This document shows, in pieces, positions 796 to 41,163 of a DNA stretch of 64,000 nucleotides. Position numbers and translations under genes: made by a program. The number at the start of each line of letters is the position of its first letter. The stretch's first letter is position 1. The notes below the pieces were generated by a model. That model searched no databases. It saw only the letters and a program-made list of their open reading frames with translations, and was not told the origin of the DNA. Source of the DNA: Verrucomicrobiia bacterium. GTDB taxonomy: Bacteria > Verrucomicrobiota > Verrucomicrobiia > JADLBR01 > JAIBCM01. The stretch lies in NCBI GenBank assembly GCA_019694135.1, contig JAIBCM010000002.1:22143-86142 (forward strand). The letters are read 5' to 3'.

Positions 796-3700
796 TTATC
801 CTTTATCTTTTTTAAAAATTTCGCCAATTAAGGTTGCGGCATCGACTCCACCAGAAAGGGATTCTTCAAAACTTCCCTCGACCATTACGGCAAAGGCATA
901 GCGTGGGTTGTCAGCAGGCAAAAAGCCAGCAAACCAAGCGATTTGGCGCGGTTTGGCTTTGCTGCCCACTTGGGCAGTGCCTGTTTTTCCTGCCACTTGT
1001 ATGCCAGAAACTTGTGCTCTTCGGCCTGTTCCTTCTTCTGTTACTGACACCATGGCTTCTTTGACAAGATCGAATTGTTCAGGAGTAAAAGATAAGGTGT
1101 TAAGAATTTCAGGAGGAAACGTTTTTACGGTTTGGCCGTTTTGATCAAAAAATTCGCTAACGATTCTGGGACGATACAAAGTGCCATGGTTGGCAATGGC
1201 TGCAACGGCATTGGCTATTTGCAAAGGGGTTGTCAGGAGATCGCCCTGACCAATCGAAACGTTGGCGACATCACCAGCGCCCATAATGCGACCATATTTT
1301 TTTCGAATGTAGTCAGGTGTTGGCATGAGACCCGCCAATTCGCCGGGTAGGGGAACGCCCGTGATTTGGCCTATGCCAAGATTAGTAGCGACGTTGATCA
1401 AAGCGGTTCGTCCGGTTCGTAAACCTAAGTCGATAAAGTAAGTATTAATGGATTGAGCAAAAGCGTTGCGAAATGAGACGGGATAAGTTTCTCGTGGTAG
1501 ATTGAATCGCACATTGCCAATTTGGTAGTAACCTTTGCAATAAACGATGCGTTCAGGATCAAAAGTGCCTGCTTGTAAAGAAGCTAACGTAGTGATGATT
1601 TTAAAGACCGAACCAGGCGGATGAAATTGTCTGATGGCTCGATTTTGTAGTGGGTTATCTTCTGCCTGCAAAAAGCTTTGCCATTTTTCTGAAGATAGAG
1701 CGGGTAAAAAGTCGTTAGGATCAAAAGTGGGTTGGCTTGCCATAGCTACGATATCGCCATTGGTTACGTTCATAATAACAACAGCACCGGCGGCAATATT
1801 TGTTAAACTTTTTTCCACGGCTTTTTGTAGTTCGAGATCGAATGTAGTTCGAATATTTAAACCTGAAGTGGCTTGTTTTTCGATAGCGGTGCGCTGCGTA
1901 AAGCCTTCGGGTGTGGTGGCGATGACAAATTTTCCTGCTTGTCCATTAAGTTCCCTATCAAAAATTTTTTCTAACCCTTCCGCGCCTTGATATTGATCGT
2001 AAATGACTAAGTTAGCTTGATAAGGGCCAATGCGTGGTGTTTGAGCGCGTTGAAGATAGCCAAGAGTGTGGGCAAGCAGTTGGTTTTCGGGATAAACTCG
2101 TTTGGGATAAGTTTGGAGGACGAAACCTTCATCTCTCAATTTACTGTTGTTGAATTGAGAAACTTTTTCGGGTGTTAAATCGCTAATGACAACAGGTTGA
2201 AATCGTTGAAAGTTATAATGGTTAGTCAATGTTTCATTGGAAAAGGTGATGGATTTTTCTAGCCAATTTGAGGCAAGCTCTAATTTGGGTTTAATCCAAG
2301 TTAAGGCTTCTTCTGCTGAGTTTGCTGTTTCTAAGCTTGGCCAGGGCAGAACGAGGCTTTGGCCCGAGAGAGTTGTGGCTAAGGGTGAACCGTTTGCCGC
2401 GACGATATCTCCCCGCAGAGGTGGCATGATATATTCTGCTACGGGAGGAATAGAAGCATGATCGTTTTCCTCGGAAGGCGCTTGAGAAATGAGTTCGGAA
2501 GGATTAGAAAAAAGTGTTTGTAACCAACGAGACCAATCCTCATTTTCTGCAACGCGATTGATGCGTGAGACAGGCAGTGTATTCATAGAGTTGAGCTGGG
2601 ATTGTTTAAGATAAACAAAGGTATCACCTGGGCTGGGAGCAAAACCAGCGAGACCTTGAACGGTTCCAGTATTTTTTTCCACTTCGACTTTGATGAGACT
2701 AGATGGAATCGCAAAATTGGTGGGAGAAGAGGGGAGTCGGTTGACTATTTTTTCCCATAATGGAATGGCTGTTTTCGAGGCCAACGTTTTATTGCCAATG
2801 GAAATGGATGGATCATAACCCACCCACACTCCGGTGACCCAGCGCGGAGTGTAGCCTAGGAACCAAGCGTCTCGCTGATTTTCAGAAAAACTGCTAACAC
2901 CCGTAGCGGGTTGGGTTAAGTCTTGTCGCCATGCTTTGTCTCGGAGAGTTTGCTCTAAAGTTAAGGTCATTTGTTGAGCAGTGAGAGCTTCTAGTTGTGG
3001 CAAACCAGCGACATGAGGTCGGCGATAAAGCAATTTATTTTTTCCGTCGCGAATGGATCGAATAAAGAAAGCTTTTTTCTGGGTGCCTTGGTTAGCCAGA
3101 ATCTGGTAGAGCGAGGTGATCTCCCAAAGAGTTAAAGGTCTAAAATCGTGAAAGGTTTTTGGAAGAAAATTTTCGTCAAACCTAATACCAGTATTTTTTA
3201 GCCACTGCGCTAGATTAGCTAGTCCGATTTGGTGAGCGGTTCGAATGGCCGCGGTTTTATAATTTCCAGCCAAAGCATCTTGCAAAAGAAAAAAGCGTCT
3301 GTTGAGATTTTGTTCTGGATTGCCAAAAGTTATGGCTTGGGATGTTTTGATTTCGGGTTTGTCGATAAAGGAGCTGTCAATGAGAGAAGCTGGGTGCCAA
3401 CCTAGATTTTGCATGGCTAAAGCATATAAAAAAGGGTAGAGTGAAGCGCCATTGTCTCGTTGCGCCATGGTGATGCGATCAAATTGGCTTTGGGTAAAAT
3501 CTCTTCCTCCCACGTATGCTTGAACGGCGCCTTCAACAGCGTCCAAAATTAAAACGGCCGCTTGTAAAGGGCCTGGATTTTCAATAGTTTTGCGTAGGTT
3601 TTTTTCCTGGGTTAATTCCCATTCAACCTGGGTCAGAGTTTCTGAAACTGCCCGCTCTGCTGCTTGTTGTAAAGTTGTGTTGAGCGTAGTATACACCCGG

Positions 3701-4557
3701 AGGCCTTGAGGAAATTCATTTTCTTCGAGTTGTAAAACTTCCTGCAACTCTTGCATGATGAGAGGGGTGAAATATTTGTTTAATCCTACTGAAGTTTCTG
3801 GAACGAGACGAATTCGTTTTTGTCGCGCTTGCCAGGCTTGTTGTGATGTGATGAATTTTTCTTCCACCATGGTTTGTAAAACACGATCTCTTCCCTGAAG
3901 CGCTTTTTGATAGTCGCGTCTCGGTGAGGCGCTATTAGGAGAACGAATTAACCCGGCGAGCATGGCGCATTCCCCGAGGGTGAGTTGTTTAGCTGATTTA
4001 CCGAAATAGCCGCGCGCTGCGGCTTCTAAACCAAAATAGCCTTTGCCGAAATAGATTCGGTTGATGTAATAATCTAAGATCTCCTGTTTGGTAAAATGAT
4101 TTTCAATACGAAGCGCTAAAAAAGTTTCTATTAATTTACGATCCCAAGAGCGTTCAAACATGCCGATAGCATTTTTGGCGAGCTGCTGGGTAATGGTGCT
4201 TCCACCTTGAGTAAATTGGCCTGATTTTAAGTTAACTACGAGAGCCCGAACAATTCCGATGATATCAATGCCGTAATGCCAATAAAAACGACGATCTTCT
4301 GCGGCAATAATAGCTTGGCGCATGAGGTCTGGAATTTCATTATGTTTTAATACGATGCGATTTTCTAATGCAAGTCGTCCGATTTCCTTATCATTATCAT
4401 CATAAAAAATGCTCGTTTCATTGTATTTTGCGAGATCGTTCAGATCGTATTGTTGTGCAAGTTGATAGTGCGTTTTAACTTTGGGATAAAGCAGCCAAGT
4501 CGCTAATGTGATCAAGAGCAGAAAAAAAACTAAGCTTAACGTAAGAAATCGTTTCAT
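796..4557 (-). CDS. Multimodular penicillin-binding protein: GT51 transglycosylase, degenerate class-A transpeptidase, class-B (PBP2-like) dimerisation and transpeptidase module
   Basis: GT51 motifs EDRRFYWHYG and GGSTITQQ are present. The class-A TP region has ASLY in place of SxxK and lacks KTG. The C-terminal module has PBP2-like motifs QPTFDPN, PGSVFK and AGKTGTAQ. I place the start at MKRFLTLSL (ATG at 4555-4557), which overlaps the upstream stop by ATGA. A TM helix follows that start. Confidence 0.85.
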   Translation of the reverse strand: MKRFLTLSLVFFLLLITLATWLLYPKVKTHYQLAQQYDLNDLAKYNETSIFYDDNDKEIGRLALENRIVLKHNEIPDLMRQAIIAAEDRRFYWHYGIDIIGIVRALVVNLKSGQFTQGGSTITQQLAKNAIGMFERSWDRKLIETFLALRIENHFTKQEILDYYINRIYFGKGYFGLEAAARGYFGKSAKQLTLGECAMLAGLIRSPNSASPRRDYQKALQGRDRVLQTMVEEKFITSQQAWQARQKRIRLVPETSVGLNKYFTPLIMQELQEVLQLEENEFPQGLRVYTTLNTTLQQAAERAVSETLTQVEWELTQEKNLRKTIENPGPLQAAVLILDAVEGAVQAYVGGRDFTQSQFDRITMAQRDNGASLYPFLYALAMQNLGWHPASLIDSSFIDKPEIKTSQAITFGNPEQNLNRRFFLLQDALAGNYKTAAIRTAHQIGLANLAQWLKNTGIRFDENFLPKTFHDFRPLTLWEITSLYQILANQGTQKKAFFIRSIRDGKNKLLYRRPHVAGLPQLEALTAQQMTLTLEQTLRDKAWRQDLTQPATGVSSFSENQRDAWFLGYTPRWVTGVWVGYDPSISIGNKTLASKTAIPLWEKIVNRLPSSPTNFAIPSSLIKVEVEKNTGTVQGLAGFAPSPGDTFVYLKQSQLNSMNTLPVSRINRVAENEDWSRWLQTLFSNPSELISQAPSEENDHASIPPVAEYIMPPLRGDIVAANGSPLATTLSGQSLVLPWPSLETANSAEEALTWIKPKLELASNWLEKSITFSNETLTNHYNFQRFQPVVISDLTPEKVSQFNNSKLRDEGFVLQTYPKRVYPENQLLAHTLGYLQRAQTPRIGPYQANLVIYDQYQGAEGLEKIFDRELNGQAGKFVIATTPEGFTQRTAIEKQATSGLNIRTTFDLELQKAVEKSLTNIAAGAVVIMNVTNGDIVAMASQPTFDPNDFLPALSSEKWQSFLQAEDNPLQNRAIRQFHPPGSVFKIITTLASLQAGTFDPERIVYCKGYYQIGNVRFNLPRETYPVSFRNAFAQSINTYFIDLGLRTGRTALINVATNLGIGQITGVPLPGELAGLMPTPDYIRKKYGRIMGAGDVANVSIGQGDLLTTPLQIANAVAAIANHGTLYRPRIVSEFFDQNGQTVKTFPPEILNTLSFTPEQFDLVKEAMVSVTEEGTGRRAQVSGIQVAGKTGTAQVGSKAKPRQIAWFAGFLPADNPRYAFAVMVEGSFEESLSGGVDAATLIGEIFKKDKG

Positions 4558-6620
4558 TGCGTAGCTTCTTCCAATGTTCCCTCGGAAATTTCTTCTGTAG
4601 CCGGCAAAGGTTGTTCCTGTGGAGGTGAAGAAGATTCTTGAGAATAAATGGTGGCTTGAGGAATATAACCCAGTTGTTGGCTTAATGAACCCAACCAGTA
4701 GCATCGCCAAAATTGGCGCAAAGCTTCCATGCGGTCTTGGTCGTCAGGACTCATTTTTAGCACAGTGGCATATTCGTAGATCATGGCTAAAGGGGAGGTG
4801 TCGATATCGACATTTTGTGCTGCAGCCATTCCTTGACGTGCTGTGATTTCAGCGTTTTGTAACATTTTTTCTAGAGCGAGGCGGTTGCTTAAAGACCATT
4901 TTAAAGAATCTAATTTGAGTGAAGCGTTCCAATAAAAATATTTTTCCTTTAAAAGATCGGTTTCTAAAAAATAATTAATATCAAGAAAACATTGGGCGAC
5001 ATCATTGAAAGCAAATGAGGCGGCAGAAGTGGGCTGAGGTTGGGGTGGGCGATAGGCAGGGCCGGGAGTAAAACCGGCGTTCGCCAGAAGTGCACGTGGA
5101 ATTTGATGCGTTTCCCATTTTTTTTCCCAACTACGCTTGATGCGTTGTAGTAAGGTAGTTTGGCTTGCCAAACGAGTGTCCCAAATTAGTGAAGATTGCC
5201 ATTGGCTAGCGCGCTGTTTGATTTGGCCAGTAAAAGATTCACCTTTAGCTAGGAGCGCAGGTGTCAATTGATTGAGCCAATCGGTGGCGCGATGAGAAAA
5301 AGCGGAGGAGTCCGATTTTTTAAAGTTACGCTGGAAAACGGGAAAAATATCTCGGAGTTGGGTCTGATAGGTCACATAATAAAAACCGCTCATGAGCAAA
5401 ATAGCTGCTCGTTTTTTTTCATCTTCGGTTGCATCTGATTGCGAATGCCACGCTTGTCGGGCAATGGCAAGAGGACCCTCCAGTTTGGTTTGAAGAGTGA
5501 GCAACCAGTCATTGCGTTCTGACAAAAATAGACTGAGGCTCAAGTCGTTTTTATCCCATTCTTTATCTTGAGTTTTTTGAATGACGTCATCGAGTAGGCT
5601 TGAGGTTTGAGTGACAAAAGATTTTAATTGAGCTGAGTTTAAGTTAGTTTTGAAAGCTTGAGTGGCGGCGATTTCGCTTGAGGCGTCAATAAGGAGACGA
5701 TAAGCCGCGTAAACTTGGCCAGCTTGGTAAGCTTGCGAGCCTTGTTCAAAGAGCGACAAAGCGCGTTGCCAGATGGCTTGTTCCCAAGGAGAAAGTTGCT
5801 GTAGGGCTTGTGTAGAAGGCCAGAGATTTTTCGTGCGCAACAGTTCGTTAATTTGATTTTGGCAACGTTGCGCTAAAAAACTGAATGTGCTGTTGGAATA
5901 ACGACAGGGTGTGGTATTCCAAGTTGCTGAAGGCAGGCTGTGATCCAATGCTATTTCGGCAGCTTCAGCTAAGTTTTGGGCATAAAAAACTTTTAATTTT
6001 AATGTCTTGGCTTTCGCGGCGGTATCTAAAAGTTTATTGGGATGAGTGCGATCCAAGTGTTGATTGTCAGATAAAATTATTTTTTTTATACCGGTGTTGA
6101 CAGCCAGTTCCATGCGTGATTCAACATTTTGAACAGGACCGAGCGATTGATCGGGTAGTAGAGTAGCGAGAAGTAATGTGTCTTGAGGATAGTCGATGCC
6201 GCAAGCGGTAGCGAGTAAACCGAGCGATAGCGAAGCGCAGCTTTCTGAATCGATGGCACCGCTAAGTTCGCTCAAAACCCAATCAGCATTTTGCCAGGGT
6301 TGTTGCCACAATATTGCACTGGCCAGGGTGGCGGGCCAAAGTTGTTGGGATAACGATTGTGTGGTTTCAGGTGACATAGCACCGTCAAACCGAAAGTTAA
6401 TGGTTTCTGAAGTGGTTTCGATTTGGGGATTCCATTGAATATTAAGTTGGGAGAGTGTGATGTTTGAGTTTTTATCCAAAACGAAAAGAGGAATTTTTTG
6501 TTCAAATAATTCTTCTGTTTTTTTAAATAAAGGGAGCGATGCCCCGTGGGCAGGGAAAATAAAAACAAGAAATAGTCCTAACCATTGGCAGGTTCGTTGA
6601 TAAGAAAAATAATTACACAT
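4554..6620 (-). CDS. Secreted protein with N-terminal Lon-protease (S16)-like domain and long helical C-terminal region
   Basis: Signal-peptide-like N-terminus MCNYFSYQRTCQWLGLFLVFIFPAHGA. The segment DSESCASLSLGLLATACGI...LGPVQNVESRMELAVNTGIKKIIL aligns to the Lon block DGPSAGIAM...[24 protein letters not shown]. The catalytic Lys position reads as Glu. Confidence 0.6.
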   Translation of the reverse strand: MCNYFSYQRTCQWLGLFLVFIFPAHGASLPLFKKTEELFEQKIPLFVLDKNSNITLSQLNIQWNPQIETTSETINFRFDGAMSPETTQSLSQQLWPATLASAILWQQPWQNADWVLSELSGAIDSESCASLSLGLLATACGIDYPQDTLLLATLLPDQSLGPVQNVESRMELAVNTGIKKIILSDNQHLDRTHPNKLLDTAAKAKTLKLKVFYAQNLAEAAEIALDHSLPSATWNTTPCRYSNSTFSFLAQRCQNQINELLRTKNLWPSTQALQQLSPWEQAIWQRALSLFEQGSQAYQAGQVYAAYRLLIDASSEIAATQAFKTNLNSAQLKSFVTQTSSLLDDVIQKTQDKEWDKNDLSLSLFLSERNDWLLTLQTKLEGPLAIARQAWHSQSDATEDEKKRAAILLMSGFYYVTYQTQLRDIFPVFQRNFKKSDSSAFSHRATDWLNQLTPALLAKGESFTGQIKQRASQWQSSLIWDTRLASQTTLLQRIKRSWEKKWETHQIPRALLANAGFTPGPAYRPPQPQPTSAASFAFNDVAQCFLDINYFLETDLLKEKYFYWNASLKLDSLKWSLSNRLALEKMLQNAEITARQGMAAAQNVDIDTSPLAMIYEYATVLKMSPDDQDRMEALRQFWRCYWLGSLSQQLGYIPQATIYSQESSSPPQEQPLPATEEISEGTLEEATQ

Positions 6621-6691
6621 GGAATGATCATTCATTAAGCGATCTGGCGACAAAATCAATGAACAACCCTAATGGGGAGAGAATTAATGAG

Positions 6692-7789
6692 TTAATTCTC
6701 AGTTCTTGTCGTGAGTTTTTTGGCGTCAACGACTAGAAAACGGCCACGATTTTTTCTCGCTAATCCTTCTAAAAATTCTTTTTCATTGGGTTTTTCTGCC
6801 GCTGTGAGGAAATAGATGGCATGTAGTCGCACAGGTTCGGTCAAAGTTTTTTGTAAATCTGCTGTTTGTTTCCAAATTTCTTCAGCAGGAATTTTTCCGC
6901 CTTGAGTTTTATTAGCGTCTCCGTCGGAAATCAGATAAATAATGTCGGGTTGCATGGCGAAAGCTTGTTCAATAGCCAGATCGGTGCGTGTGCCGCCCAT
7001 GCCATCTTCTAAAAGATCCCCACCTATGACGCGCTGTTGTTTGCGGACGCTGGTTTGCGGATCTTCAGAGATGCCTTGAATCCATTTTTTGGCTTCCGCT
7101 TTATTTTGATCGGTAGAGGGAACCAGTTGCGATTTAAAGGCGAGGGAGCCTCCTTCCCAAATAATAAGGCCAAATTGTGTGTTAATACTTAGGCCATCTA
7201 TGAGTTTCATGGCTTCTTGTTTAATCATGTAGTAAGGCATTTTGATCATGTTTCCGTTAAGACTTCGTTCGAACATGGTGTTGGAAGCGTCAACAGCGAT
7301 AACAATTTTAGCGCCGGTGTCTTTGATGCCGAAAAAGCCGACCGAAGAACCATTCCCTACGCCTGTTAAGCCGGCTTTTCCGCCAAAGGAACTGGAACCG
7401 GATAAGGATAAAACGCCATCGGAGATAACGGCGGATGCATTGAGCGGTAAGGATTGGTCGAGAGGAAGTTTAGGCAATGGAGGTAATCCTTTATCCATCA
7501 TGCGTGTACTCGTAAGAGGACTGCTAAAGGCTGGAGTAGAAGCAGCTTCTTCAAAGGCAGCTAGAGCCATTTTTTGTTCACGTTCGGGGGAGGTAATTTT
7601 AAATTTTTTTGGTTCAGCAACAAAAGTAGCAGGCGGAGCGATGAGATATTTGGCCACAATGACGGCACCGGCGATGATACCTGCTAAAATATGAGCGCCC
7701 AGGCTAATCAAAAGGATAGTGATAAGCATTTTTCGGCGTTTATTTTTTTCGCCTACGCCTTCTTTAAGCTGATCTATGCTGATATCCAT
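6692..7789 (-). CDS. Membrane-anchored von Willebrand factor A (VWA, MIDAS) domain protein with TonB-like N-terminal TM helix and Pro-rich linker
   Basis: Start placed at MDISIDQLKEG to avoid overlap with exbD. One TM helix (LITILLISLGAHILAGIIAGAVIV) is followed by a Pro-rich spacer. The VWA domain carries the MIDAS motifs VDASNT, GGTRTDLAIEQA and IYLISDGDAN. Confidence 0.7.
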   Translation of the reverse strand: MDISIDQLKEGVGEKNKRRKMLITILLISLGAHILAGIIAGAVIVAKYLIAPPATFVAEPKKFKITSPEREQKMALAAFEEAASTPAFSSPLTSTRMMDKGLPPLPKLPLDQSLPLNASAVISDGVLSLSGSSSFGGKAGLTGVGNGSSVGFFGIKDTGAKIVIAVDASNTMFERSLNGNMIKMPYYMIKQEAMKLIDGLSINTQFGLIIWEGGSLAFKSQLVPSTDQNKAEAKKWIQGISEDPQTSVRKQQRVIGGDLLEDGMGGTRTDLAIEQAFAMQPDIIYLISDGDANKTQGGKIPAEEIWKQTADLQKTLTEPVRLHAIYFLTAAEKPNEKEFLEGLARKNRGRFLVVDAKKLTTRTEN

Positions 7790-7802
7790 AATTTCGTAAA
7801 GG

Positions 7803-8258
7803 TTATAGGTCAAAATCGTCTTCGGGATCGGAAGCAAATGTGACGCCTTTGATACCTGCCAGGGCACAAGTGTTCATAACATCGATGATGCGTTGATGCA
7901 CCACGCCATCTTCGGGAAAAAGAGTAACTAAAGCTTCGGCTTGGTTAGCATCGCTAGCTTCTTTATAGCGTTTTAAGGTTTCAAGCAATTGAGGCAATTG
8001 TGAGTCGGTGGGACTATCTAAAGTTTGTTCGTTGAGTACGACTTGGCCATTGGCGCGAATTTCGATGCGTTGTTCATCGGGCAGATCGACTGATTCTTCT
8101 TGTGACACGGAGCCGGGAAGTTTGGTGCTGACATCGGCTTCGGGTTTTACGGGTTTGGAAGTCAGAATGTAGAAGAAGAGTAGCAAGAAACATACGTCGA
8201 TCATGGGTGCGATTTGAAGTTCGACTTGAGGATGTTCAGTTTTTTTAGGGGTTGCCAT
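7803..8258 (-). CDS. exbD: ExbD/TolR family biopolymer transport protein
   Basis: N-terminal LQIAPMIDVCFLLLFFYI is the ExbD/TolR TM signature. Length is ~150 aa. Confidence 0.8.
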   Translation of the reverse strand: MATPKKTEHPQVELQIAPMIDVCFLLLFFYILTSKPVKPEADVSTKLPGSVSQEESVDLPDEQRIEIRANGQVVLNEQTLDSPTDSQLPQLLETLKRYKEASDANQAEALVTLFPEDGVVHQRIIDVMNTCALAGIKGVTFASDPEDDFDL

Positions 8259-8264
8259 AATCTT

Positions 8265-8693
8265 TTAATGTTGAGTAGTTCCAAAGATGACTTGAATGGC
8301 TCCGGCTTCTGCAGCGGCTTTCATGACATCTTTGATTTGTTTCGCAGGGGTTTTTGCGTCGGCTCGCACGTAAATGATAAGAGGTGGAACATCGGTAAGG
8401 CGTTGTTTCAGATAGGCTTTTAATTCGCGCATATCCATTTGGCGTTCGCTAGCGAAGTATTGGCCTTTTTCATCGATATTGACTACATCTCGTCCACTTA
8501 AATCTTCCGGCACGACTGAGGACTGGGCGCGAGGCAAGTTAATATTCATGAGTTTCTGGCTTTTAGTTAGTTTGCCAGAGAGCATGAAGAAAAAGAGCAA
8601 GAGCATGGTGACGTCGATCATGGGCGCAATTTGAAGCCCCACTTCTTCGTGAGTCACTTTTCGCGGACGTTTGCGCTGGATTTGCTCTGCCAT
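8265..8693 (-). CDS. exbD: ExbD/TolR family biopolymer transport protein (second copy)
   Basis: The motif LQIAPMIDVTMLLLFFFM is present. The gene is a paralogue of the adjacent exbD. Confidence 0.8.
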   Translation of the reverse strand: MAEQIQRKRPRKVTHEEVGLQIAPMIDVTMLLLFFFMLSGKLTKSQKLMNINLPRAQSSVVPEDLSGRDVVNIDEKGQYFASERQMDMRELKAYLKQRLTDVPPLIIYVRADAKTPAKQIKDVMKAAAEAGAIQVIFGTTQH

Positions 8694-8747: not shown

Positions 8748-9557
8748 TTAAGATTGGAAATCAGGCCCTACGGGTAAGGTGCTGCCATCATTTTCTCCTG
8801 CTGCAACGGCCGCAGCGGCTAACCCTTCCATGGTGACTTCACCTGTGAATAGATCAAGCATGGTGGAAACGGCTTTATGCACGTCGACCATTAAGGCTTG
8901 AGCTTTGCCGCGGAAGAAGAAGTAAAGGAACATGGAGGGAATCGCGAGCATCAAACCGCCGGCGGTTGCTACGAGCGCTTCACCAATACCGCCCGCCAGA
9001 TCGGTGGCTTCGGCTTTACCGGCAGTCAACGCGCTAAAGGAGTTAATCATACCGCTTACCGTTCCTAACAACCCGATCATGGGCGCCATGACGGCGAGGG
9101 TGTTGAGGTAAGTGATGAGCACTTGCACTTTGGTTTCTTCATGGTAGACGGCATCAGCCACAGCGTTTTCCATGGCAGCTTTGTTAAACATATCTCTTTC
9201 AAAGTTTGCCTTGGTTAAAGCAGAGGTCAGCGTGTGGGCTAATGGCCCGGGATTTTCTTTGCAAATTTGAAAGGCGTTGGGGATGTTGCGTTGGCTCATG
9301 GTTAAGTTTAGTTGGTGGATAACGCTGTCTGGCAGGATTTTTTTTCTGCGTAATTGTAATCCTAAAAATCCGCCTAAAGCTACGCAACCGACTGAGCAAA
9401 GAGCGATGATGTGCATGATGGGACCTCCTTCATGGTAGAGGTCGAGCAAGCTTTTGCTGGATTCAACCTTAGGCGCGGCCCAGGTCGATTGCAAACCGAA
9501 TGTGAGCCATGTCACAAGGATAAGACCGATGTAGTAAAGAGGTTTTAATGTTTTCAT
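8748..9557 (-). CDS. exbB: MotA/TolQ/ExbB proton-channel family protein
   Basis: Signal-like N-terminus followed by three TM helices. The C-terminal block GLLGTVSGMINSF...AGGIGEALVATAGGLMLAIP is typical of ExbB/TolQ. Confidence 0.8.
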   Translation of the reverse strand: MKTLKPLYYIGLILVTWLTFGLQSTWAAPKVESSKSLLDLYHEGGPIMHIIALCSVGCVALGGFLGLQLRRKKILPDSVIHQLNLTMSQRNIPNAFQICKENPGPLAHTLTSALTKANFERDMFNKAAMENAVADAVYHEETKVQVLITYLNTLAVMAPMIGLLGTVSGMINSFSALTAGKAEATDLAGGIGEALVATAGGLMLAIPSMFLYFFFRGKAQALMVDVHKAVSTMLDLFTGEVTMEGLAAAAVAAGENDGSTLPVGPDFQS

Positions 9558-9562
9558 AGAGG

Positions 9563-10447
9563 TTATTGGGTTGTGGTTTCTTTTTCTTCGTTTTGTTCTT
9601 CTTCTTTCTCTTCAGTTTTTACTAAAGGTTTTAATTCTTTTAGCTTGGTTTGAGCACGTGCAAAGATGGAACTTTGCGGGTAATCGGCAATGATATCTTG
9701 CAACACTCTAACGGCTGCTGAAAGATTGGTTTCTGCCAGATAAACGCGCGATGCGCCCCATAAGCCGCGACCCACTTCTTCCTTGAGAGTTGGGTTGAAT
9801 ACGCGGTTATAGAGAAAATGATCCAAAGCAGCGGGATAATTTGTGCGTCCAAGCTCAACTTCGCCCAGTACTAATTGCACGAAGGCGACGATGGAAGAGT
9901 CTTTGGATTGCTCTTCCATTTGTTTGGCCATGACCATGGCTTCTTCGAAACGATTCAGGCCGGCCAAACATTTCACCTTTAATGGAGCGACAAGAAACTT
10001 TCTTTTTTGATTCCAGTCTTGAGCTTCGATTTGTTCCACAGCTTTGAGCGCTTCGTCGAATTGTTTTAGGTCGATCAGTGTTTCAGCGCGGGCAAATAAC
10101 ACCTCACCAGCAGGAGATTCTGGAATGGAAAGAAACGATTGCCAAAATTTCCAAAGCGGGTCGAGAGTTGTTAAGCGCGCGGCTGGATCAGTAGGCAGTT
10201 TGGATCGATCGAAAGTGGCTTCAAAAACGATTTTTTCGATTTGATCTAAATTGTAAGCGCTTTCGGCTTTGCCGCCTCGAAATTCAACTTGAATATAAAC
10301 TTTATTTTTTTCGGAGCGTAAAACTTTGCCTTCAATTTCATCTAAAGTTTTTAAAACTACGAGATCTTGTGCATGAATAGAGGTTAAACCCGCAATAGCC
10401 ATGAGGCCTAACACAAAACTGAGCTGAAAAAAATTCTGTGTTTTCAT
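9563..10447 (-). CDS. Secreted TPR-repeat protein
   Basis: Signal peptide followed by helical TPR-like repeats. The gene overlaps the upstream TPR gene by 4 nt. Confidence 0.6.
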   Translation of the reverse strand: MKTQNFFQLSFVLGLMAIAGLTSIHAQDLVVLKTLDEIEGKVLRSEKNKVYIQVEFRGGKAESAYNLDQIEKIVFEATFDRSKLPTDPAARLTTLDPLWKFWQSFLSIPESPAGEVLFARAETLIDLKQFDEALKAVEQIEAQDWNQKRKFLVAPLKVKCLAGLNRFEEAMVMAKQMEEQSKDSSIVAFVQLVLGEVELGRTNYPAALDHFLYNRVFNPTLKEEVGRGLWGASRVYLAETNLSAAVRVLQDIIADYPQSSIFARAQTKLKELKPLVKTEEKEEEQNEEKETTTQ

Positions 10448-13242
10448 GAGGAGGTTGGCTTGGGTTCCGAAGCCGGGTTGACATTGGCGCCTGGTTTTAA
10501 TTCGGCGAGTCTTTGTTGAGCAGCTTTATATTCTTCAAAACTTGCCAGATCTGCTTCTTTTAAGAAAGCTTCGTAAGTTTCAATCGCTTGAGGTTTTAAT
10601 TGTAAGGTTTCGAGCGCTTTGCCGCGGGCTAAATAAGCTTTTGATACCCAGTCGCGGTAGCGAGCATAGAGAATGTAAATGCGTTCGTAATAAGCGCAGG
10701 CTTCTTTCGTTTTACCCATTTGCTCGTTGAGTTGGCCCAGTTGATAAAGCGCTTGCACCCAGGGCTTGCCCTTGGCAGCAGGAGTTTCCAATATTTTTTC
10801 CAAGGTTGCAATAGCTTCTGGAATGCGTTTTTGGTTTTTGTAAATTTCTACTTTGGATTCTAAGATTTTTGGTAGAAGGATGGAGGAGCCGGATTCAGCT
10901 TCAAAGCGATCAAACATAGCAAGCGCTTTAGTTTCATCTCCTTTTGCTAAGGCAATGAGGCCTAAGCCCGCTAGAGCACGATCGGTGAAACGAGTTTTTT
11001 TAGGAGTGTTGGCCAAGATATTCAAATAAGTTTCAGCTTCGGCATAGCGCTTTTCAGTGACTAACAGTTCTCCCAAGTCAATGCAGAGCCGTTGGGAAAG
11101 TTGTTCCGGTTTGAAGCGATCAGGACGGGCTAATTCTAAAAGCGCAAGACGGGCTTGATCCGGGTTGGAGCGACGTTGGAGTTGAGCAAGAAGCCAGAGA
11201 TAACGCGCAGCTTGTATGGGTTTGCCAGCAGCAAGTAAGTTGTCCTTACCCTTTTCTAGCTCGCTGATCAGAGCTGCTTTATCGTCGACAGTGGGGAAAA
11301 GTTTGGCGTAGCCGATGAAAAGGTCTTCAACAAAATTGCTCTTCAGATCAGAGCCGTATTTTTCCAGGGCAAGTCGGTAAAAACGGCGCGCATCTTCAAT
11401 TTGATCGAGTTGGCGCAAACCCCAACCGGTCCAGTGATAGGCTTCGACAACGCGACCACTATTCGGGTTTTTGTCGATAAATTTTTTGAAATGATCGACC
11501 ATTTTTTCGTATTGTTCAGTAAGTCGAAGCGCTTTGCCAATTTGGAATTGTGCATATTCATAGAGTCGTTCGTTGGCTGGGCCGACTTCGCTAAACATTT
11601 TGATGCCTTCATCGGGATCGCCTTCAGCGAACCAAGCGTCACCAGCTAGGGCGCGCACTTCATCGGTGAGCGGGTTTTGAGGATAGGTTTTTACCCAGTC
11701 CACAAGTTTTTTGCGTGCTTCTTCATATTTTTTTTCGCCATAATCAGCGGCTGCCATGCGATAGATGGCTTCTTCTTTGAAGGTGCCTTGGGGATATTCT
11801 TTGAGATAAAGGTTGAATCGCGTGCGAATTTCAGGGTAGTTTTTTGCAAAAACGGCAGTCATGGCATTCCAATAGAGATTATTTTCTGCCAAGGGACTTT
11901 TAGGAAATTGTTGTCGGAAACGAGCAAAGGAATCGGTGGCTTCTTGATATTTTTCCAGAAAAAGCGCGCTGTAACCGGCCAAAAATAAAACGCGATCGGC
12001 TTGAGGAAATTGAGGATAAAGTTTGGTGTGTTTAGTAAAAACGTTATAGGCATCTTCAAAGCGGTTATTATTAAGATAAGCTTCGCCCTCGAGATAGGCG
12101 GCTTGAGGTGCGCGTGAGTCGTTGGGATAGCGTTTGATGAAAGAGGCGACGAGTTCTTGAACTTTGTCCCAACGTTGTAATTCCACAGCAGCTAGGATGG
12201 CGAGGTAATGACCGACTATGACCGGTTCGGTTCGGGGCTGGGTTTCGGCTACGGCTATAGCAGCGAGATAGCCTTCTCCAGGGCGTTCGCATTGCAGGGC
12301 GCATTGTGCGACACGTAAGTGACGGTTGAGATCGAAAGTTTCCATTTTGGTAAGATTTTCTTTCTCACGAATCAGGCCGTCTTTCATTTGTTGGAGTTGG
12401 AGCGCTTTAATGCTGAGCCCTTGAGCGTAACGGGTAAGTTGTTTTTCTACGTCAGTCAGTAGTTTTTCTTGTCTGTCCAAAATTTGAGCTTTGAGCGGGA
12501 TGAAAAGGTAGCAGCGATAGGCTTTGTTGTATTCTCCATCTTCATAAAAATCGTCGCCTAATTGCATGGCCTGCAGAGCAAGAAGAGCTTGCTGACGAAT
12601 GGGTTCGGGTTTGGCGCGCAAAATTTCTAGCACAGCCAGTGCGCCATCAAGATCACGGCTTTCGAGCAAGCTTTGCAAGCGCATGAGCATGGCGCGTTCA
12701 GCGGTTAAAGGGTCGCGCGTTTTACTGGCAATTTCAAAAAGTGCAGCAGCTTCTTTATATTTTTTTTCTTGGAATTGCGAGTTAGCCATTAACATTTGCG
12801 CTTCGGAAGTTTGCGGCGTGTTAGGATAGTTTTTTAAAAAAGTTTCAAAGGCGCTGATGGCTTCGCTGAATTTTCCTTGTTGATAGCGGGATAATCCTAG
12901 CCAGAAAGACATATCCGGCACGGCCTTGCCTTGTGGATATTCTTTAATATAGGTTTCAATGATGGGCTCGGCCGCTTCGGGTTTTTGTATTTGCAAATAA
13001 GACGCTGCGAGGAGAGGGTAAACTTCGGGTTTTACTTTTTGCGCTTCAGGACTGGAGCCATAGGAGGTTAAAAAATTTTCGTAAATTTTAGCCGCTTCTG
13101 GAAAATTTCCAGCATTAAAAGCGCTTGAGCCACGCTGTAAGAGATCATCCGCTGTGCCAGTGCCAGCTTGGTCTTGTGCGTTCGCCAGAGAGGAAATTAT
13201 CCCTAACGCTACCATCATTACGAAACGCCGAATGCACTTCAC
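10444..13242 (-). CDS. Large secreted tetratricopeptide-repeat protein (932 aa)
   Basis: Signal peptide MKCIRRFVMMVALGIISSLANAQ is followed by many W-LG-Y-A-F-P TPR-type repeats along the whole length. Confidence 0.7.
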   Translation of the reverse strand: MKCIRRFVMMVALGIISSLANAQDQAGTGTADDLLQRGSSAFNAGNFPEAAKIYENFLTSYGSSPEAQKVKPEVYPLLAASYLQIQKPEAAEPIIETYIKEYPQGKAVPDMSFWLGLSRYQQGKFSEAISAFETFLKNYPNTPQTSEAQMLMANSQFQEKKYKEAAALFEIASKTRDPLTAERAMLMRLQSLLESRDLDGALAVLEILRAKPEPIRQQALLALQAMQLGDDFYEDGEYNKAYRCYLFIPLKAQILDRQEKLLTDVEKQLTRYAQGLSIKALQLQQMKDGLIREKENLTKMETFDLNRHLRVAQCALQCERPGEGYLAAIAVAETQPRTEPVIVGHYLAILAAVELQRWDKVQELVASFIKRYPNDSRAPQAAYLEGEAYLNNNRFEDAYNVFTKHTKLYPQFPQADRVLFLAGYSALFLEKYQEATDSFARFRQQFPKSPLAENNLYWNAMTAVFAKNYPEIRTRFNLYLKEYPQGTFKEEAIYRMAAADYGEKKYEEARKKLVDWVKTYPQNPLTDEVRALAGDAWFAEGDPDEGIKMFSEVGPANERLYEYAQFQIGKALRLTEQYEKMVDHFKKFIDKNPNSGRVVEAYHWTGWGLRQLDQIEDARRFYRLALEKYGSDLKSNFVEDLFIGYAKLFPTVDDKAALISELEKGKDNLLAAGKPIQAARYLWLLAQLQRRSNPDQARLALLELARPDRFKPEQLSQRLCIDLGELLVTEKRYAEAETYLNILANTPKKTRFTDRALAGLGLIALAKGDETKALAMFDRFEAESGSSILLPKILESKVEIYKNQKRIPEAIATLEKILETPAAKGKPWVQALYQLGQLNEQMGKTKEACAYYERIYILYARYRDWVSKAYLARGKALETLQLKPQAIETYEAFLKEADLASFEEYKAAQQRLAELKPGANVNPASEPKPTSS

Positions 13243-33396: not shown

Positions 33397-35370
33397 ATGC
33401 CAGCATCACTCACATCGGTTTCAGGGAAAAGTTCTAGTAGAATTGAGACGGTGAATTTTGATTTGGAATCGCGAGTCAATGCGGCGATTCATGCGTCTCA
33501 AAATCATCTGCTTTCTTTACAACATCCTGATGGTTATTGGGTGGGAGAGTTAACCGTCGACACCACTTTGATTTCGGATCTGGTGCTTTTTATGCATTGG
33601 CGGGGTAAGGTGGATTTTGCGAAGCAAGCGAAATGCGTGAAGCATTTGTTAGATCGTCAGTTGCCAGATGGTGGTTGGAATATTTATGTGAATGGCCCCA
33701 GTGAGGTTAATGCCAGTGTTAAAGCTTACTTTGCTTTAAAATTAGCCGGTTTATCGCCTCAAGAGCCTGCGATGAAAAAAGCGCATGCCAATATTTTGCG
33801 TTTGGGAGGAATTCCTAAAATGAACACTTACGCGAAATTAAATTTAGCGTTGGTGGGACAATTTTCTTGGAAATATCTTCCGATTATTCCTGTTGAGATT
33901 ATTTTGCTTCCCAAATGGTTATATTTTAATATTTACGAAATGTCTTCTTGGAGTCGGGCTATGCTTTGTCCGCTCGCTATTATTAACCATTTTCGACCCA
34001 CACGTCCACTTCCGCCGGAAAAACAGTTGCATGAACTCTTTCCTTACGGAACGGAGCATAACGATTTTTCGTTAAAGTATGATTCAAAGTTTTTTACTTG
34101 GCGCAATTTTTTCCTGCGTTGGAACGATTTTTTAAATTTTGTGGATGGTTTGCCTTATAAACCTTTTCGTTCTGTAGCATTGAAGAAAGCTGAACAATGG
34201 TTGTTGGCGCGAATTAGTGAAGGCAGCGATGGGTTGGGGGCGATTTATCCTGGTATTTTTAATGCCATTGTTGCTTTGGAATGTCTCGGTTACTCCGATG
34301 AACACCCCATCATGCAAAAGCAGTTAAAACATTTTGAAGAATTGGAAGTTGACGATATTGTAAATAACGATTTTCGTGTGCAGCCCTGCTTATCTCCTGT
34401 ATGGGACACCGCTATTACTTCAGTGGCATTGGCTGAATCGGAAGTGCCCGCTGATCATCCTGCACTGCAAAAAGCGGCCGATTGGTTGTTGAGCAAAGAA
34501 GTGCATTTTCGAGGTGATTGGCAATACAAAAATCCTTACCCTGTTGCTTCGGGATGGGCATTTGAGTTTAATAATGAATATTATCCCGATGTGGATGATA
34601 CTTTGAAAGTGCTTTTGGCGCTTCGCTTAGTACAAACTTCGAACGAATCTAGTAAACAAGAAGTCATAGAGCGGGCTTTAGGTTGGGTATTAAGTTTTCA
34701 ATGTAAAGATGGGGGTTGGGCAGCTTTTGACAAGGATGTGACGAAACATTGGCTGGAAGATGTGCCTTTTGCGGATCATAATGCTATTTTGGATCCTACT
34801 TGTAGCGATATCACAGCGCGCTGTTTGGAGTTGCTCGGCAAGTTGGGTTATCGCAATAACACGCGTTTTATTAAACGCGCTCTTGCCATGCTTCAAAAGA
34901 CTCAGGAATCGGACGGTTCCTGGTTTGGTCGCTGGGGCGTGAATTATATTTATGGAACGTGGCAAGTGTTGCGAGGGGTAAGTGCTTTAAACGAAAATAT
35001 GAATGAAGATTGGATTGTGCGTGGCCGCGACTGGTTAGAATCGTGTCAAAATTACGATGGAGGTTGGGGCGAAACGTGCGCGTCTTATGATGATTCCGCT
35101 TTAAAAGGAAAAGGTCCCAGCACAGCTTCTCAAACAGCTTGGGCGCTAATGGGTATCATTGCTTGCGGCGATCCTCATCGAATTAGCATTCAAAAAGGGG
35201 TGGATTATTTATTGCGCACACAAAATTCCAATGGGAGCTGGACAGAAGAAGAGACCACGGGAACGGGTTTTCCTAAGGTGTTTTATTTGCGTTATGATAT
35301 GTATCGCAATAACTGGCCTTTACTTGCTTTAGCGGAGTATAAGAAGTTGCGTGCCCAATTTCCTGCATAA
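33397..35370 (+). CDS. shc: Squalene-hopene cyclase
   Basis: The DVDDT active-site motif (YYPDVDDTLKVL) and multiple QW repeats (G/W-rich) are present. Length is 657 aa. Confidence 0.9.
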   Translation: MPASLTSVSGKSSSRIETVNFDLESRVNAAIHASQNHLLSLQHPDGYWVGELTVDTTLISDLVLFMHWRGKVDFAKQAKCVKHLLDRQLPDGGWNIYVNGPSEVNASVKAYFALKLAGLSPQEPAMKKAHANILRLGGIPKMNTYAKLNLALVGQFSWKYLPIIPVEIILLPKWLYFNIYEMSSWSRAMLCPLAIINHFRPTRPLPPEKQLHELFPYGTEHNDFSLKYDSKFFTWRNFFLRWNDFLNFVDGLPYKPFRSVALKKAEQWLLARISEGSDGLGAIYPGIFNAIVALECLGYSDEHPIMQKQLKHFEELEVDDIVNNDFRVQPCLSPVWDTAITSVALAESEVPADHPALQKAADWLLSKEVHFRGDWQYKNPYPVASGWAFEFNNEYYPDVDDTLKVLLALRLVQTSNESSKQEVIERALGWVLSFQCKDGGWAAFDKDVTKHWLEDVPFADHNAILDPTCSDITARCLELLGKLGYRNNTRFIKRALAMLQKTQESDGSWFGRWGVNYIYGTWQVLRGVSALNENMNEDWIVRGRDWLESCQNYDGGWGETCASYDDSALKGKGPSTASQTAWALMGIIACGDPHRISIQKGVDYLLRTQNSNGSWTEEETTGTGFPKVFYLRYDMYRNNWPLLALAEYKKLRAQFPA

Positions 35371-36063
35371 ATGGCGACACCTGTCTCTTTAGCTGTTTTT
35401 TTTGCTGTGCCTCATGAAGCTGCGTTATTGAAAAAAAAACTGAAATTTCGATGGCAAAAAAAAGGCGTTGGCTTGTTTTTTGCTGAAACTCGGGTGAGGG
35501 ATAAAACCATTCTTTTCGCTTGTTTAGGAATGGGCAAAGAAGCAGTGAAGAAAAATTTAACATTTCTTTTAGATTATTTTACTTTTTCTCAAGCGATTTT
35601 AGCGGGTTACGCTGGAGCGCTCGATCCCAAACTCGAAAAAGGAGATATTGTCATTTCTGATAAGCGATACTTGGATTTATTGCCTGATTTAAAATTAGGA
35701 AAAATTATTTCTGTTGATACAGTAGCAGCTACTGCCGAAGAAAAATATGCGCTATTTCAAAAAACTGGCGCTTCTGTTTGCGATATGGAGTATGAAGCAG
35801 CTTTGGTGATTTGTCAGAAACACAACCTTACTTTGTATTCGATTCGAGCTGTGAGCGACACGGCTCACGAGAATTTACCTTCAGGCGCGCTAGCAAGCGC
35901 TTTTGATTTAAAAAGGCAACGATCAACTCCTTTAAAGATTTTTTGCTATGGGATAAGACATCCTCGGAATATGATTTCTTTTTTTAAATTTGTTCATGGA
36001 CTGGCAAAATCTCAAAGAGCTTTAACACAAATCTTGATTCAAATATTAAAAAATCAATCTTAG
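35371..36063 (+). CDS. hpnG: Hopanoid-associated nucleoside phosphorylase (PNP/MTAN family, HpnG-like)
   Basis: The protein has the PNP_UDP_1 fold with GMGKEA and CDMEYEAA...IRAVSD motifs. The gene sits immediately 3' of shc. Confidence 0.6.
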   Translation: MATPVSLAVFFAVPHEAALLKKKLKFRWQKKGVGLFFAETRVRDKTILFACLGMGKEAVKKNLTFLLDYFTFSQAILAGYAGALDPKLEKGDIVISDKRYLDLLPDLKLGKIISVDTVAATAEEKYALFQKTGASVCDMEYEAALVICQKHNLTLYSIRAVSDTAHENLPSGALASAFDLKRQRSTPLKIFCYGIRHPRNMISFFKFVHGLAKSQRALTQILIQILKNQS

Positions 36064-38258: not shown

Positions 38259-38272
38259 GGAGATTTAAAAAT

Positions 38273-39124
38273 TTAAAGTTTAAAGCAGGCTTTGGGTAAG
38301 AGTCGCAGAATGTCCCATTTTGAAAGTGTGGGACGTTGATGGAGTGTGTAATAATTAATTTTTTCTATTTTTCGTAAAATCTCGGTTCCGCCTAGCCAGG
38401 TGAGTCGAATTTCGAATCTTAGCCCGCGAGTGAGATATTCCGGTAAACGTTTGCCTTCGTTAAAAATTTGCCAGGTGCGATCGACTTGGAATTTCAACAA
38501 GTTCCGAAATTGAGGAGTGTCGGCATTATTTTTTAACTGCGTTTCATCGATTTGAAAAGTGTCCATATCATTTTTCGGAAGGTAAATGCGATCTTTCAAA
38601 AGATCAACGCTCACGTCTTGCCAGAAATTGGCAAGTTGCAAGCCAGTGCAAATTTTATCGCTCAGTTGATGAAGTGTTTCGTCGCGATAATTAAAAACAT
38701 GAAGAACCAAACGTCCGACTGGATTGGCGCTACGACGACAGTAGTCTAAAACCTCATCAAAGTTAGTATAACGAGTTTTGACTATGTCTTGTTTGAAAGC
38801 AGAAATAAGATCGCGAAATAGTTGAATGGGAAGCTGACATTTTTCAATGGCTTCGCGCAATGCGATAAAAATCGATTCTTGATTTTTGCCTTCTAGAGCT
38901 AGATCTAAATGATTTTCCCAACGTTCTAGAAGTTCAATTCTTTCGGGAACAGTAAGGGTTTGAACGGTTTCATCGGCAAAGTCATCCGCGGTGCGAGCAA
39001 AAGCGTAGACCGCGTGAATATATTTACGTTGAGGTTGAGGCAAAAGCCGCGAGCCTACAGGAAAATTTTCGTAATGGTCTTGCGCCTGGCGAGAGCATTG
39101 GAGGTAGGCTTCTTCGAGAGTCAT
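38273..39124 (-). CDS. hpnC: Squalene synthase family protein HpnC (hydroxysqualene synthase-like)
   Basis: HYENFPVGSRLLP and ARTADDFADE motifs. Length is 283 aa. Confidence 0.75.
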   Translation of the reverse strand: MTLEEAYLQCSRQAQDHYENFPVGSRLLPQPQRKYIHAVYAFARTADDFADETVQTLTVPERIELLERWENHLDLALEGKNQESIFIALREAIEKCQLPIQLFRDLISAFKQDIVKTRYTNFDEVLDYCRRSANPVGRLVLHVFNYRDETLHQLSDKICTGLQLANFWQDVSVDLLKDRIYLPKNDMDTFQIDETQLKNNADTPQFRNLLKFQVDRTWQIFNEGKRLPEYLTRGLRFEIRLTWLGGTEILRKIEKINYYTLHQRPTLSKWDILRLLPKACFKL

Positions 39125-40662: not shown

Positions 40663-41163
40663 ATGAAAAAATCCCTAGTTTCCCAATGGAGTATGGTCAC
40701 GGCGATGGTTGCCGGTTTAGTAGTTGTTTGTAATCATTCTGTTCAAGCGGAAGAGCTTTCACCTGAACAAGGAAGCCAAAAAATGATTAAGCGTTTTGAC
40801 ACCAATCATGACGGAAAATTGGATTCCAAAGAGCTGGAAGTGATGAAGGCTAAGATGGCTGAGATGCGAAAAGAGCATCAAGAAAGAATGCTGGAAAAAT
40901 TTGATAAAAATAAAGATGGACAGTTGGATGACCAAGAAAGAGCTGAGATGCAAAAAGCTAGGCAAGCCTGGCAGGAGCAGCGCGCGGAAAATAGAGAAAA
41001 AGTTTTTGAAAAATTAGATTTAAATAAAGATGGAAAGTTGGACGAAACCGAATTGAAAAAGGCTCAGGAAAAACGATTGGATAAAGCAATGTCTTTAGAC
41101 ACGAACAAAGATGGGAAAATAGATAAAAAAGAGTGGGAAGCTCGGAAGCCGCAGAAAGAATAA
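40663..41163 (+). CDS. Secreted EF-hand calcium-binding repeat protein
   Basis: A signal peptide is followed by four DxNxDGKxD loops: DTNHDGKLD, DKNKDGQLD, DLNKDGKLD and DTNKDGKID. Confidence 0.75.
   Translation: MKKSLVSQWSMVTAMVAGLVVVCNHSVQAEELSPEQGSQKMIKRFDTNHDGKLDSKELEVMKAKMAEMRKEHQERMLEKFDKNKDGQLDDQERAEMQKARQAWQEQRAENREKVFEKLDLNKDGKLDETELKKAQEKRLDKAMSLDTNKDGKIDKKEWEARKPQKE

Follow-up and report, generated by a model that had tools for sequence, protein, structure and literature searches.

Energy from the inner membrane classically reaches the outer membrane through two systems, Ton and Tol. Should there be a third class with another type of head, further outer-membrane processes would be powered likewise, and the finding would bear on the envelope biology of a phylum that includes Akkermansia. 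Here we describe a candidate for such a class in a stretch of 64,000 nucleotides from a Verrucomicrobiia bacterium (contig JAIBCM010000002.1, positions 22,143 to 86,142). This whole stretch is called the window, and positions are counted from its first letter; the genes of the locus described here lie on the minus strand unless marked (+). The protein in question, encoded at 6692-7789, is a predicted inner-membrane protein of 365 amino acids with a predicted VWA head, and its gene follows a set of ExbB- and ExbD-like genes. Such a class already exists as a published proposal, and the window locus is a further example of it, notable for an intact metal ion-dependent adhesion site (MIDAS). In June 2025, 'vWA force transducers' were predicted with a synteny in the Planctomycetes-Verrucomicrobia-Chlamydiae group that is the same as in the window (Mol Biol Evol; PMC12204202). 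Their architecture was described as a transmembrane helix with a Ser-His-Leu-Ser motif, a motor box, a middle domain of ~100 residues and a VWA head, and they were recorded in Proteobacteria, Planctomycetes, Verrucomicrobia, Bacteroidetes and Rhodothermaeota (PMC12204202). In AlphaFold 3 models of other members, the helix His occupies the site used by TonB and TolA, and the supplement prints two seed proteins from Tichowtungia aerotolerans (PMC12204202). A preliminary description of the window, made from the sequence alone, arrived at the hypothesis that is already published there. The present analysis adds the residues under selection, namely the helix His, Phe56, four of the five MIDAS residues and the linker motifs, as well as the complete MIDAS as the mark of a subclade, a second gene for a tetratricopeptide repeat (TPR) protein and named cultured carriers.

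Sequence comparison places the window protein in the published family. It matches transducer 2 of Tichowtungia aerotolerans by BLASTP at 2e-20 (26% identity over residues 28-290, from the transmembrane helix into most of the VWA domain) and by hhalign with a probability of 99.3%, where the seed sequence comes from a machine-read PDF table and may contain small errors. Along with this seed homology, the window protein shows a transmembrane helix with Ser and His, a disordered middle of ~100 residues, a VWA head and the family's synteny.

The preliminary description had claimed a VWA head with a complete MIDAS in place of a TonB C-terminal domain, and had suggested a hidden Markov model scan to decide between the two. 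Scanned alone, the window protein gave no match to any Pfam or NCBIfam family, TonB_C included, even at E<=10. The suggested scan was thus empty for the single sequence, and the VWA assignment came instead from a family profile, scans of homologues and an AlphaFold model, which all agree with the claim. A profile of 22 homologues matched the VWA domains of the inter-alpha-trypsin inhibitor heavy chains ITIH4 (5.1e-11) and ITIH1 (2.4e-6) among PDB entries, with weak matches over 56 residues to BatB (3ibs, 1.9e-3) and to a related Bacteroides protein (4jdu, 3e-3). Scanned singly, the same homologues matched VWA_2 (16/22), VWA_3 (15/22) and VWA (9/22), and no Pfam family other than VWA families was matched among the 22. 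The AlphaFold model has a mean predicted local distance difference test score (pLDDT) of 75. Residues 148-356 (6722-7348), the predicted VWA domain, score about 67-97 per block and mostly above 80. Foldseek again returned ITIH4 (3.2e-10) and ITIH1 (6.7e-10) as the best matches of the model, at 15-19% identity, and further VWA matches included TFIIH p44, complement C2a and the calcium-channel alpha2-delta subunit. Family profile, Pfam matches of the homologues and model together establish the head as a VWA domain.

All five MIDAS residues are predicted to lie at canonical positions in the AlphaFold model of the window protein. Motif 1, D167-A-S169-N-T171 (7277-7291), stands at the C-terminal end of strand beta1 (161-167), and D167 aligns with the ITIH1 MIDAS residue D298, the one mutated in PDB 6fpz. 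The MIDAS Thr belongs to G265-G266-T267 (6989-6997), just before a helix at 269-278, and the MIDAS Asp to S288-D289-G290 (6920-6928), at the end of strand 283-288. Conservation was followed in a family alignment of 279 rows and in a species-level sample of 80 loci, one genome per species and nearly all labelled Verrucomicrobiota. These loci were searched as six-frame open reading frames with the window proteins, and the synteny comparison covers 84 related loci (L001-L084). In the 279-row alignment, the motif 1 Asp is kept in 244/251 sequences, the Ser in 239/251, and Ser or Thr at the third position in 244/250. D289 is invariant in the 22-homologue alignment and present in 242/244 family sequences. 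Of the species-level loci, 79/80 retain the Asp, the Ser, the Ser/Thr and the final Asp. The MIDAS Thr has a patchier distribution, with 16/80 loci and 103/251 family sequences. The 16 loci form a Chthoniobacter-type clade, and the window protein carries the Thr too. As judged from these alignments, a complete MIDAS marks a subclade and is not a family-wide feature. The two seeds keep only the first MIDAS Asp, with DANKL for DASNT, CSG for SDG and no GGT, and MIDAS is nowhere mentioned in PMC12204202 or its supplement.

A short N-terminus followed by one transmembrane helix, as proposed in the preliminary description, is upheld by a basic stretch KNKRRK, a hydrophobic helix at residues 22-46 (7652-7726; LITILLISLGAHILAGIIAGAVIVA) and a single continuous helix at residues 12-49 of the AlphaFold model. 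The basic stretch precedes the helix, which fits an N-in, C-out topology. Residues 22-45 read LITILLISLGAHILAGIIAGAVIV and include Ser29-x3-His33, with the His33 codon at 7691-7693. The helix aligns with the transmembrane helix of the published Tichowtungia transducer and keeps the Ser and the His of the Ser-His-Leu-Ser motif of TonB and TolA. Looking for a TonB-type His in this helix had been proposed as a check, and His33 proved to be kept in 73/80 species-level loci, with Ser29 in 38/80. The seven loci without the helix His carry Gln or a hydrophobic residue instead (L070, L083, L084, L067, L068, L073 and L077) and are all of the Opitutales/Puniceicoccaceae type. Six of them have a permuted gene order or no adjacent motor, and the seventh, L073, has too short an upstream sequence to judge synteny. 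Loss of the helix His accompanies loosened synteny, a point absent from PMC12204202.

Directly after the helix, PPATFVAE (residues 52-59; 7613-7636) is a candidate motor or stator box. It aligns with residues 54-61 of Tichowtungia transducer 2, for which the authors put the 'stator box' at about residues 55-60 (PMC12204202), and its Phe56 is present in 212/220 family sequences. The box lies in a predicted periplasmic linker (residues 47-147; 7349-7651) that is mostly disordered: apart from a helix at 69-82, most positions from 57 to 145 score below 50 in pLDDT. The linker contains conserved motifs followed by a Gly/Ser-rich stretch. The motifs are R-E-[HQ]-[KR]-M (70-74), which falls in the short helix of the model, P86-x-F88, R96 and L-P-x-L-P-x-x-P-x-D (102-111). 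A Pro/Ala-rich spacer had been described here, which is only roughly right. Residues 50-147 hold 13 Ser, 12 Ala, 11 Pro, 11 Leu and 9 Gly among 98 residues, hence a Ser/Ala/Pro/Leu/Gly-rich segment and not a proline-rich rod as in TonB. Given its conserved motifs, the linker is more than a plain spacer.

The VWA gene is the last of a six-gene cassette ordered TPR (932 amino acids)-TPR (294 amino acids)-ExbB-ExbD-ExbD-VWA. Its position directly downstream of exbB-exbD-exbD, noted earlier from the sequence, is confirmed by Pfam matches and a 13-nucleotide gap. The exbB/tolQ-like stator gene (269 amino acids; 8748-9557) matches Pfam MotA_ExbB at 1e-26, and its product is equally near solved TolQ (2e-10) and ExbB (1e-9). 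The two exbD/tolR paralogues, of 142 amino acids (8265-8693) and 151 amino acids (7803-8258), match Pfam ExbD at 3.3e-21 and 7.5e-19, respectively. Paralogue 1 aligns with Pseudomonas savastanoi ExbD across the membrane-Asp motif PMIDV, and its Asp is kept in 67/67 orthologues. The transmembrane Asp of paralogue 2, also in PMIDV, is kept in 74/74. In the stator, both pore residues, Thr166 and Thr198, are kept by all orthologues (61/61 each). This conservation argues that the motor is under selection to conduct protons. For the stator, every NCBIfam equivalog score was below its cut-off, so the motor is not typical of either Ton or Tol. The preliminary description had named a tonB gene of the same operon just outside the window, or moxR and DUF58 neighbours, as contexts that would speak against its reading. 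A Pfam scan of all open reading frames of at least 130 amino acids in the 64 kb gave no match to TonB_C, TolA, TolB, OmpA/Pal, MoxR or DUF58. The operon, which runs from 13242 down to 796 and lies entirely inside the window, contains no tonB, and the same scan rules out an overlooked canonical tonB or tolA in the window. Neither adverse context was thus found, and the data support the interpretation given in the preliminary description.

Two secreted TPR proteins head the cassette. The first gene, at 10444-13242 behind a promoter-like site at 13323-13296, encodes a multi-TPR protein of 932 amino acids recognised by Pfam TPR families, and it is conserved upstream in related loci. Its product scores 2.3e-60 (202.5 bits, cut-off 90.1) against the NCBIfam CpoB model tol_pal_ybgF (TIGR02795), a score summed over seven stretches of repeats, and BamD (1e-36) and other TPR models match too. 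The second gene (9563-10447) encodes a protein of 294 amino acids with a signal peptide, a small five-stranded beta domain and a TPR solenoid in the AlphaFold model (pLDDT 78). The model was built from a shallow alignment, the homologue search having given six close relatives, and Foldseek matches were to generic, peptide-binding TPR proteins. In most loci this gene separates exbB from the large TPR gene. The cassette includes a second, small TPR gene, a point likewise absent from PMC12204202.

The association between VWA gene and motor is not due to chance, because ExbD adjoins the VWA gene in 66 of the 71 species-level loci that have 1.5 kb or more of upstream sequence, with differing genes on the flanks. 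Likewise, the six-gene cassette recurs within unrelated flanks around three divergent homologues (33-45% identity). Of the 62 loci with a long enough upstream stretch, 44 show the full six-gene order by single-sequence search, and profiles raise this number. The sampled loci span Chthoniobacterales, Terrimicrobiaceae, Verrucomicrobiales, Akkermansiaceae, Opitutales/Puniceicoccaceae and Methylacidiphilales. Cultured carriers include Luteolibacter pohnpeiensis KCTC 22041, Verrucomicrobium sp. BvORR034 and Thalassobacterium sedimentorum. Departures from the common order are found in a minority of loci. The order is ExbB-VWA-ExbD-ExbD in three Opitutales/Puniceicoccaceae loci, which keep the cluster, ExbD-ExbD-VWA with no exbB nearby in four Verrucomicrobiaceae loci, and TPR-TPR-VWA in two. 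A locus from a Prosthecobacter metagenome-assembled genome (MAG; L064, 3672-7037) has no exbB upstream of ExbD-ExbD-VWA. In its place stands a 1121-amino-acid protein that contains a laminin-G/concanavalin-like domain (2e-17) and faintly matches glycoside-hydrolase and MG2 families. A Methylacidiphilales MAG (L028) carries a second, more divergent set of small-TPR, ExbB, ExbD and ExbD genes at about 5100-7700, 3-4 kb downstream of the VWA gene.

The start of the VWA gene is best placed at the ATG at 7789, as chosen before. The mechanical open reading frame runs over 6692-7867 from a GTG. The ATG lies 13 nucleotides past the TAA (7805-7803) of the second exbD, and the 22 homologues align starting at the Met that it encodes, which makes it the better-supported start. 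GenBank MBX7157265.1 ('MAG: VWA domain-containing protein [Verrucomicrobiae bacterium]'), from a 480-kb contig, has exactly the sequence of this product. A 150-amino-acid open reading frame lies antisense inside the gene (7242-7694, +); it has no support as a gene and is probably spurious.

We suggest that the window protein is probably a three-part arm of the TonB/TolA kind that ends in a VWA head and is driven by protons through the ExbB/ExbD motor. The preliminary description spoke of an energised arm with metal-dependent ligand binding, and we infer both properties from sequence features. The architecture, fold, motifs, homology to the published family, gene linkage and conserved proton-path residues are demonstrated here; docking, force transmission, metal dependence, partner identity and cellular output we likewise infer, in the following way. 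The ExbB/TolQ-like protein would form a pentamer with the two ExbD paralogues as a heterodimer in its pore, and the transmembrane helix with Ser29-x3-His33 would dock against the outer face of this pentamer. Protons flowing through the motor would act on the arm, and the box around Phe56 would probably be gripped by the periplasmic domains of ExbD. The linker of ~100 residues would carry the VWA domain across the periplasm, and the complete MIDAS of the window lineage would hold a partner at or near the outer membrane by one of its acidic residues. Both secreted TPR proteins are likely cofactors, which may attach to the partner or to the linear motifs conserved in the linker. With low confidence, we favor an output in Tol/CpoB-like envelope coordination rather than in nutrient import, based on the CpoB-model score, the occurrence in all major orders and the penicillin-binding protein gene joined to the operon. 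The family occurs in Chthoniobacterales, Verrucomicrobiales, Opitutales and Methylacidiphilales, methanotrophs included, and a spread over these orders suggests a housekeeping role.

Several observations weigh against this proposal. The MIDAS Thr is absent in 64/80 loci and the published seeds keep 1/5 MIDAS residues, so that a metal-dependent clamp is not the general mechanism of the family. Half of the Ser-His-Leu-Ser motor-binding motif is absent in the window protein, with Ala40 and Ile44 at the Leu and second Ser positions. The AlphaFold monomer has no strand at the candidate motor box, which is modeled as coil with a pLDDT of about 50. Three loci (L067, L068 and L077) have the VWA gene alone with no adjacent motor gene; in Thalassobacterium sedimentorum (L077), its neighbours are lpxK, a DUF6901 gene and a gene for a pyridoxal-phosphate enzyme. 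As to output, the CpoB score of the 932-amino-acid protein is weak evidence given the promiscuity of TPR models, and linkage to the penicillin-binding protein gene is confined to a genus-level lineage. The authors of the published prediction state that the function is unknown, and no deletion phenotype was reported (PMC12204202).

The variable integrity of the MIDAS across the family would also suit a different role, in which the VWA protein would serve the motor as an accessory. As an anchor, assembly factor or regulator, it would fix or gate ExbB-ExbD via the TPR proteins and exert no pull on an outer-membrane target. Synteny and the data on the transmembrane helix fit such an accessory equally well, several motifs of the linker are strongly conserved, in contrast to a simple spacer, and two TPR scaffold proteins are co-encoded in most loci. 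We nevertheless regard an accessory role as unlikely, since the three-part build, the Ser-x3-His of the helix and the candidate box that follows it copy known transducers, and since published AlphaFold 3 models seat the helix at the TonB/TolA site (PMC12204202). A BatA/BatB-type aerotolerance or MoxR-associated membrane VWA protein, with the proximity to exbBD being incidental, could draw on the weak profile matches to BatB (3ibs) and 4jdu over 56 residues and on the TPR proteins that Bat operons also contain. The best matches are to ITIH VWA domains and not to Bat proteins, the ExbD linkage is kept in 66/71 loci, and no MoxR or DUF58 gene was found in the 64 kb or in three Pfam-annotated related loci. 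A Bat-type protein is extremely improbable on these grounds, and a Bat/MoxR identity of the window protein was rejected on its gene context.

The same motor-coupled arm might instead serve the import of macromolecules such as glycans across the outer membrane, much as TonB serves SusC-type transporters. Going by annotations only, such an output might relate to the mucin utilization locus MUL1 of Akkermansia muciniphila. MUL1 holds mul1A (amuc_0544), which is required for mucin use and for competitive gut colonisation, and one paper states that the locus 'resembles the Sus system'. A published gene table gives, in order, Amuc_0543, Amuc_0544 and an unnamed gene (all hypothetical proteins), Amuc_0546 (ExbD/TolR), Amuc_0547 (hypothetical protein), Amuc_0548 (MotA/TolQ/ExbB) and Amuc_0549 (endonuclease III). 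The need for mul1A in mucin use, the ExbD/TolR and MotA/TolQ/ExbB annotations next to three further hypothetical proteins and the presence of the canonical cassette in Akkermansiaceae (L053, L074) would all be in line with import. The gene order of MUL1 is unlike that of the cassette, though, the cassette also occurs in Methylacidiphilales (L028), and it includes no outer-membrane transporter gene in the three Pfam-annotated related loci. MUL1 synteny is moreover reported to be absent in aquatic Akkermansiaceae, and an Akkermansiaceae MAG (L074; habitat unchecked) has the canonical cassette, so MUL1 and the cassette may be paralogous. Weighing these points, we consider an import function rather doubtful. 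A wider proposal is that the six-gene cassette encodes a third type of machine next to Ton and Tol, general to Verrucomicrobiota, which would hold an outer-membrane partner by an integrin-style metal grip and of which the partly related MUL1 would be a specialised derivative for mucin uptake. This we hold to be similarly doubtful. If true, mutants would already exist in a genetically tractable gut bacterium, and the published claim that no phenotype is known would be mistaken.

Downstream of the VWA gene, the operon of the window lineage is extended by two genes. A secreted protein of ~693 amino acids (4554-6635) has no Pfam or NCBIfam match. Its gene is probably co-transcribed with the VWA gene because it follows the VWA stop after a 56-nucleotide gap without a terminator-like site on the minus strand. 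The next gene (796-4557) encodes a penicillin-binding protein of 1253 amino acids recognised by Pfam Transgly, PBP_dimer and Transpeptidase. It combines an N-terminal Transgly domain (1e-61) with C-terminal PBP_dimer and Transpeptidase domains of the class B type, and ~480 residues between them have no assignment. Its ATG overlaps the TGA of the 693-amino-acid gene (ATGA, 4557-4554), which points to translational coupling. The 693-amino-acid gene was searched for in loci L001-L084 and found in none of them. A sister lineage (L085, L086; 87% VWA identity) has a 699-amino-acid gene at the same position and keeps the extended operon, and more distant relatives do not. Both genes were rejected as core parts of the cassette, being found only in the window lineage and this sister lineage.

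Elsewhere in the window, a hopanoid-type cluster at 33397-39124 contains genes for a squalene-hopene cyclase, a phosphorylase-family protein, a squalene/phytoene synthase-amine oxidase fusion (732 amino acids) and a second squalene/phytoene synthase. Almost all 2-kb bins have a positive GC skew (range -0.006 to 0.39), with the highest values at 40-52 kb, a region that includes an mreB-mreC-pbp2-rodA-RNase G block (+). A gene at 40663-41163 (+) encodes a 166-amino-acid protein with several EF-hand calcium-binding motifs and a dockerin-like match, and it adjoins a gene of the agmatine/peptidyl-arginine deiminase family.

Compared with TonB, the window protein shares an N-in single transmembrane helix with Ser-x3-His, a middle predicted to span the periplasm and a globular C-terminal head. 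Its gene stands beside exbB-exbD, and an ExbB-ExbD motor is its partner by gene linkage only. The two proteins differ in the head, since the window protein lacks TonB_C (PF03544) and, as noted, gave no Pfam or NCBIfam match at E<=10. The predicted head would bind through a metal site and not by strand addition to a TonB box. The linker contains 11% proline, conserved motifs and no Glu-Pro or Lys-Pro repeats, and the window has two ExbD paralogues where Ton has one.

The same three-part build is found in TolA. The locus resembles Tol-Pal also in its stator, as near to TolQ as to ExbB, perhaps in the TPR protein of the operon that matches the CpoB model, and in the penicillin-binding protein gene that follows the cassette in the window lineage. 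The last of these recalls the link between CpoB, TolA and PBP1B in E. coli. Unlike Tol-Pal, the window has no TolA C-terminal domain, tolB or pal among open reading frames of at least 130 amino acids. The TPR protein is 932 amino acids long, compared with about 260 for CpoB, and the link to the penicillin-binding protein is not conserved beyond the genus-level lineage.

Membrane-tethered VWA proteins encoded beside a TolQ-like gene also make up the second family of PMC12204202, the TolQ-only proteins with a trans-pore helix. These have an ExbD-like helix with a proton-binding Asp, no Ser/His motif and no tolR or exbD neighbour (PMC12204202), whereas the window helix (22-46) has no Asp and its gene adjoins two exbD genes. 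BatA and BatB likewise join an N-terminal membrane anchor to a VWA domain and have TPR proteins in their operons. Bat operons contain moxR and DUF58 and no ExbBD, the window shows the reverse, and the similarity in sequence is marginal. The closest solved folds are those of the inter-alpha-trypsin inhibitor heavy chains, with MIDAS residues aligned. These are eukaryotic, extracellular proteins with no such membrane anchor and no motor.

The vWA force transducers are the nearest described relatives. The window protein differs from the seeds in length, at 365 amino acids against 474-476, and in its complete MIDAS. Tichowtungia has two transducers in tandem and the window one, and the Verrucomicrobiota cassette has a second small TPR gene where PMC12204202 mentions one TPR gene. 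Common to both are the Ser-x3-His helix, a linker of ~100 residues and a C-terminal VWA domain, and the candidate box after the window helix aligns with that of the seed.

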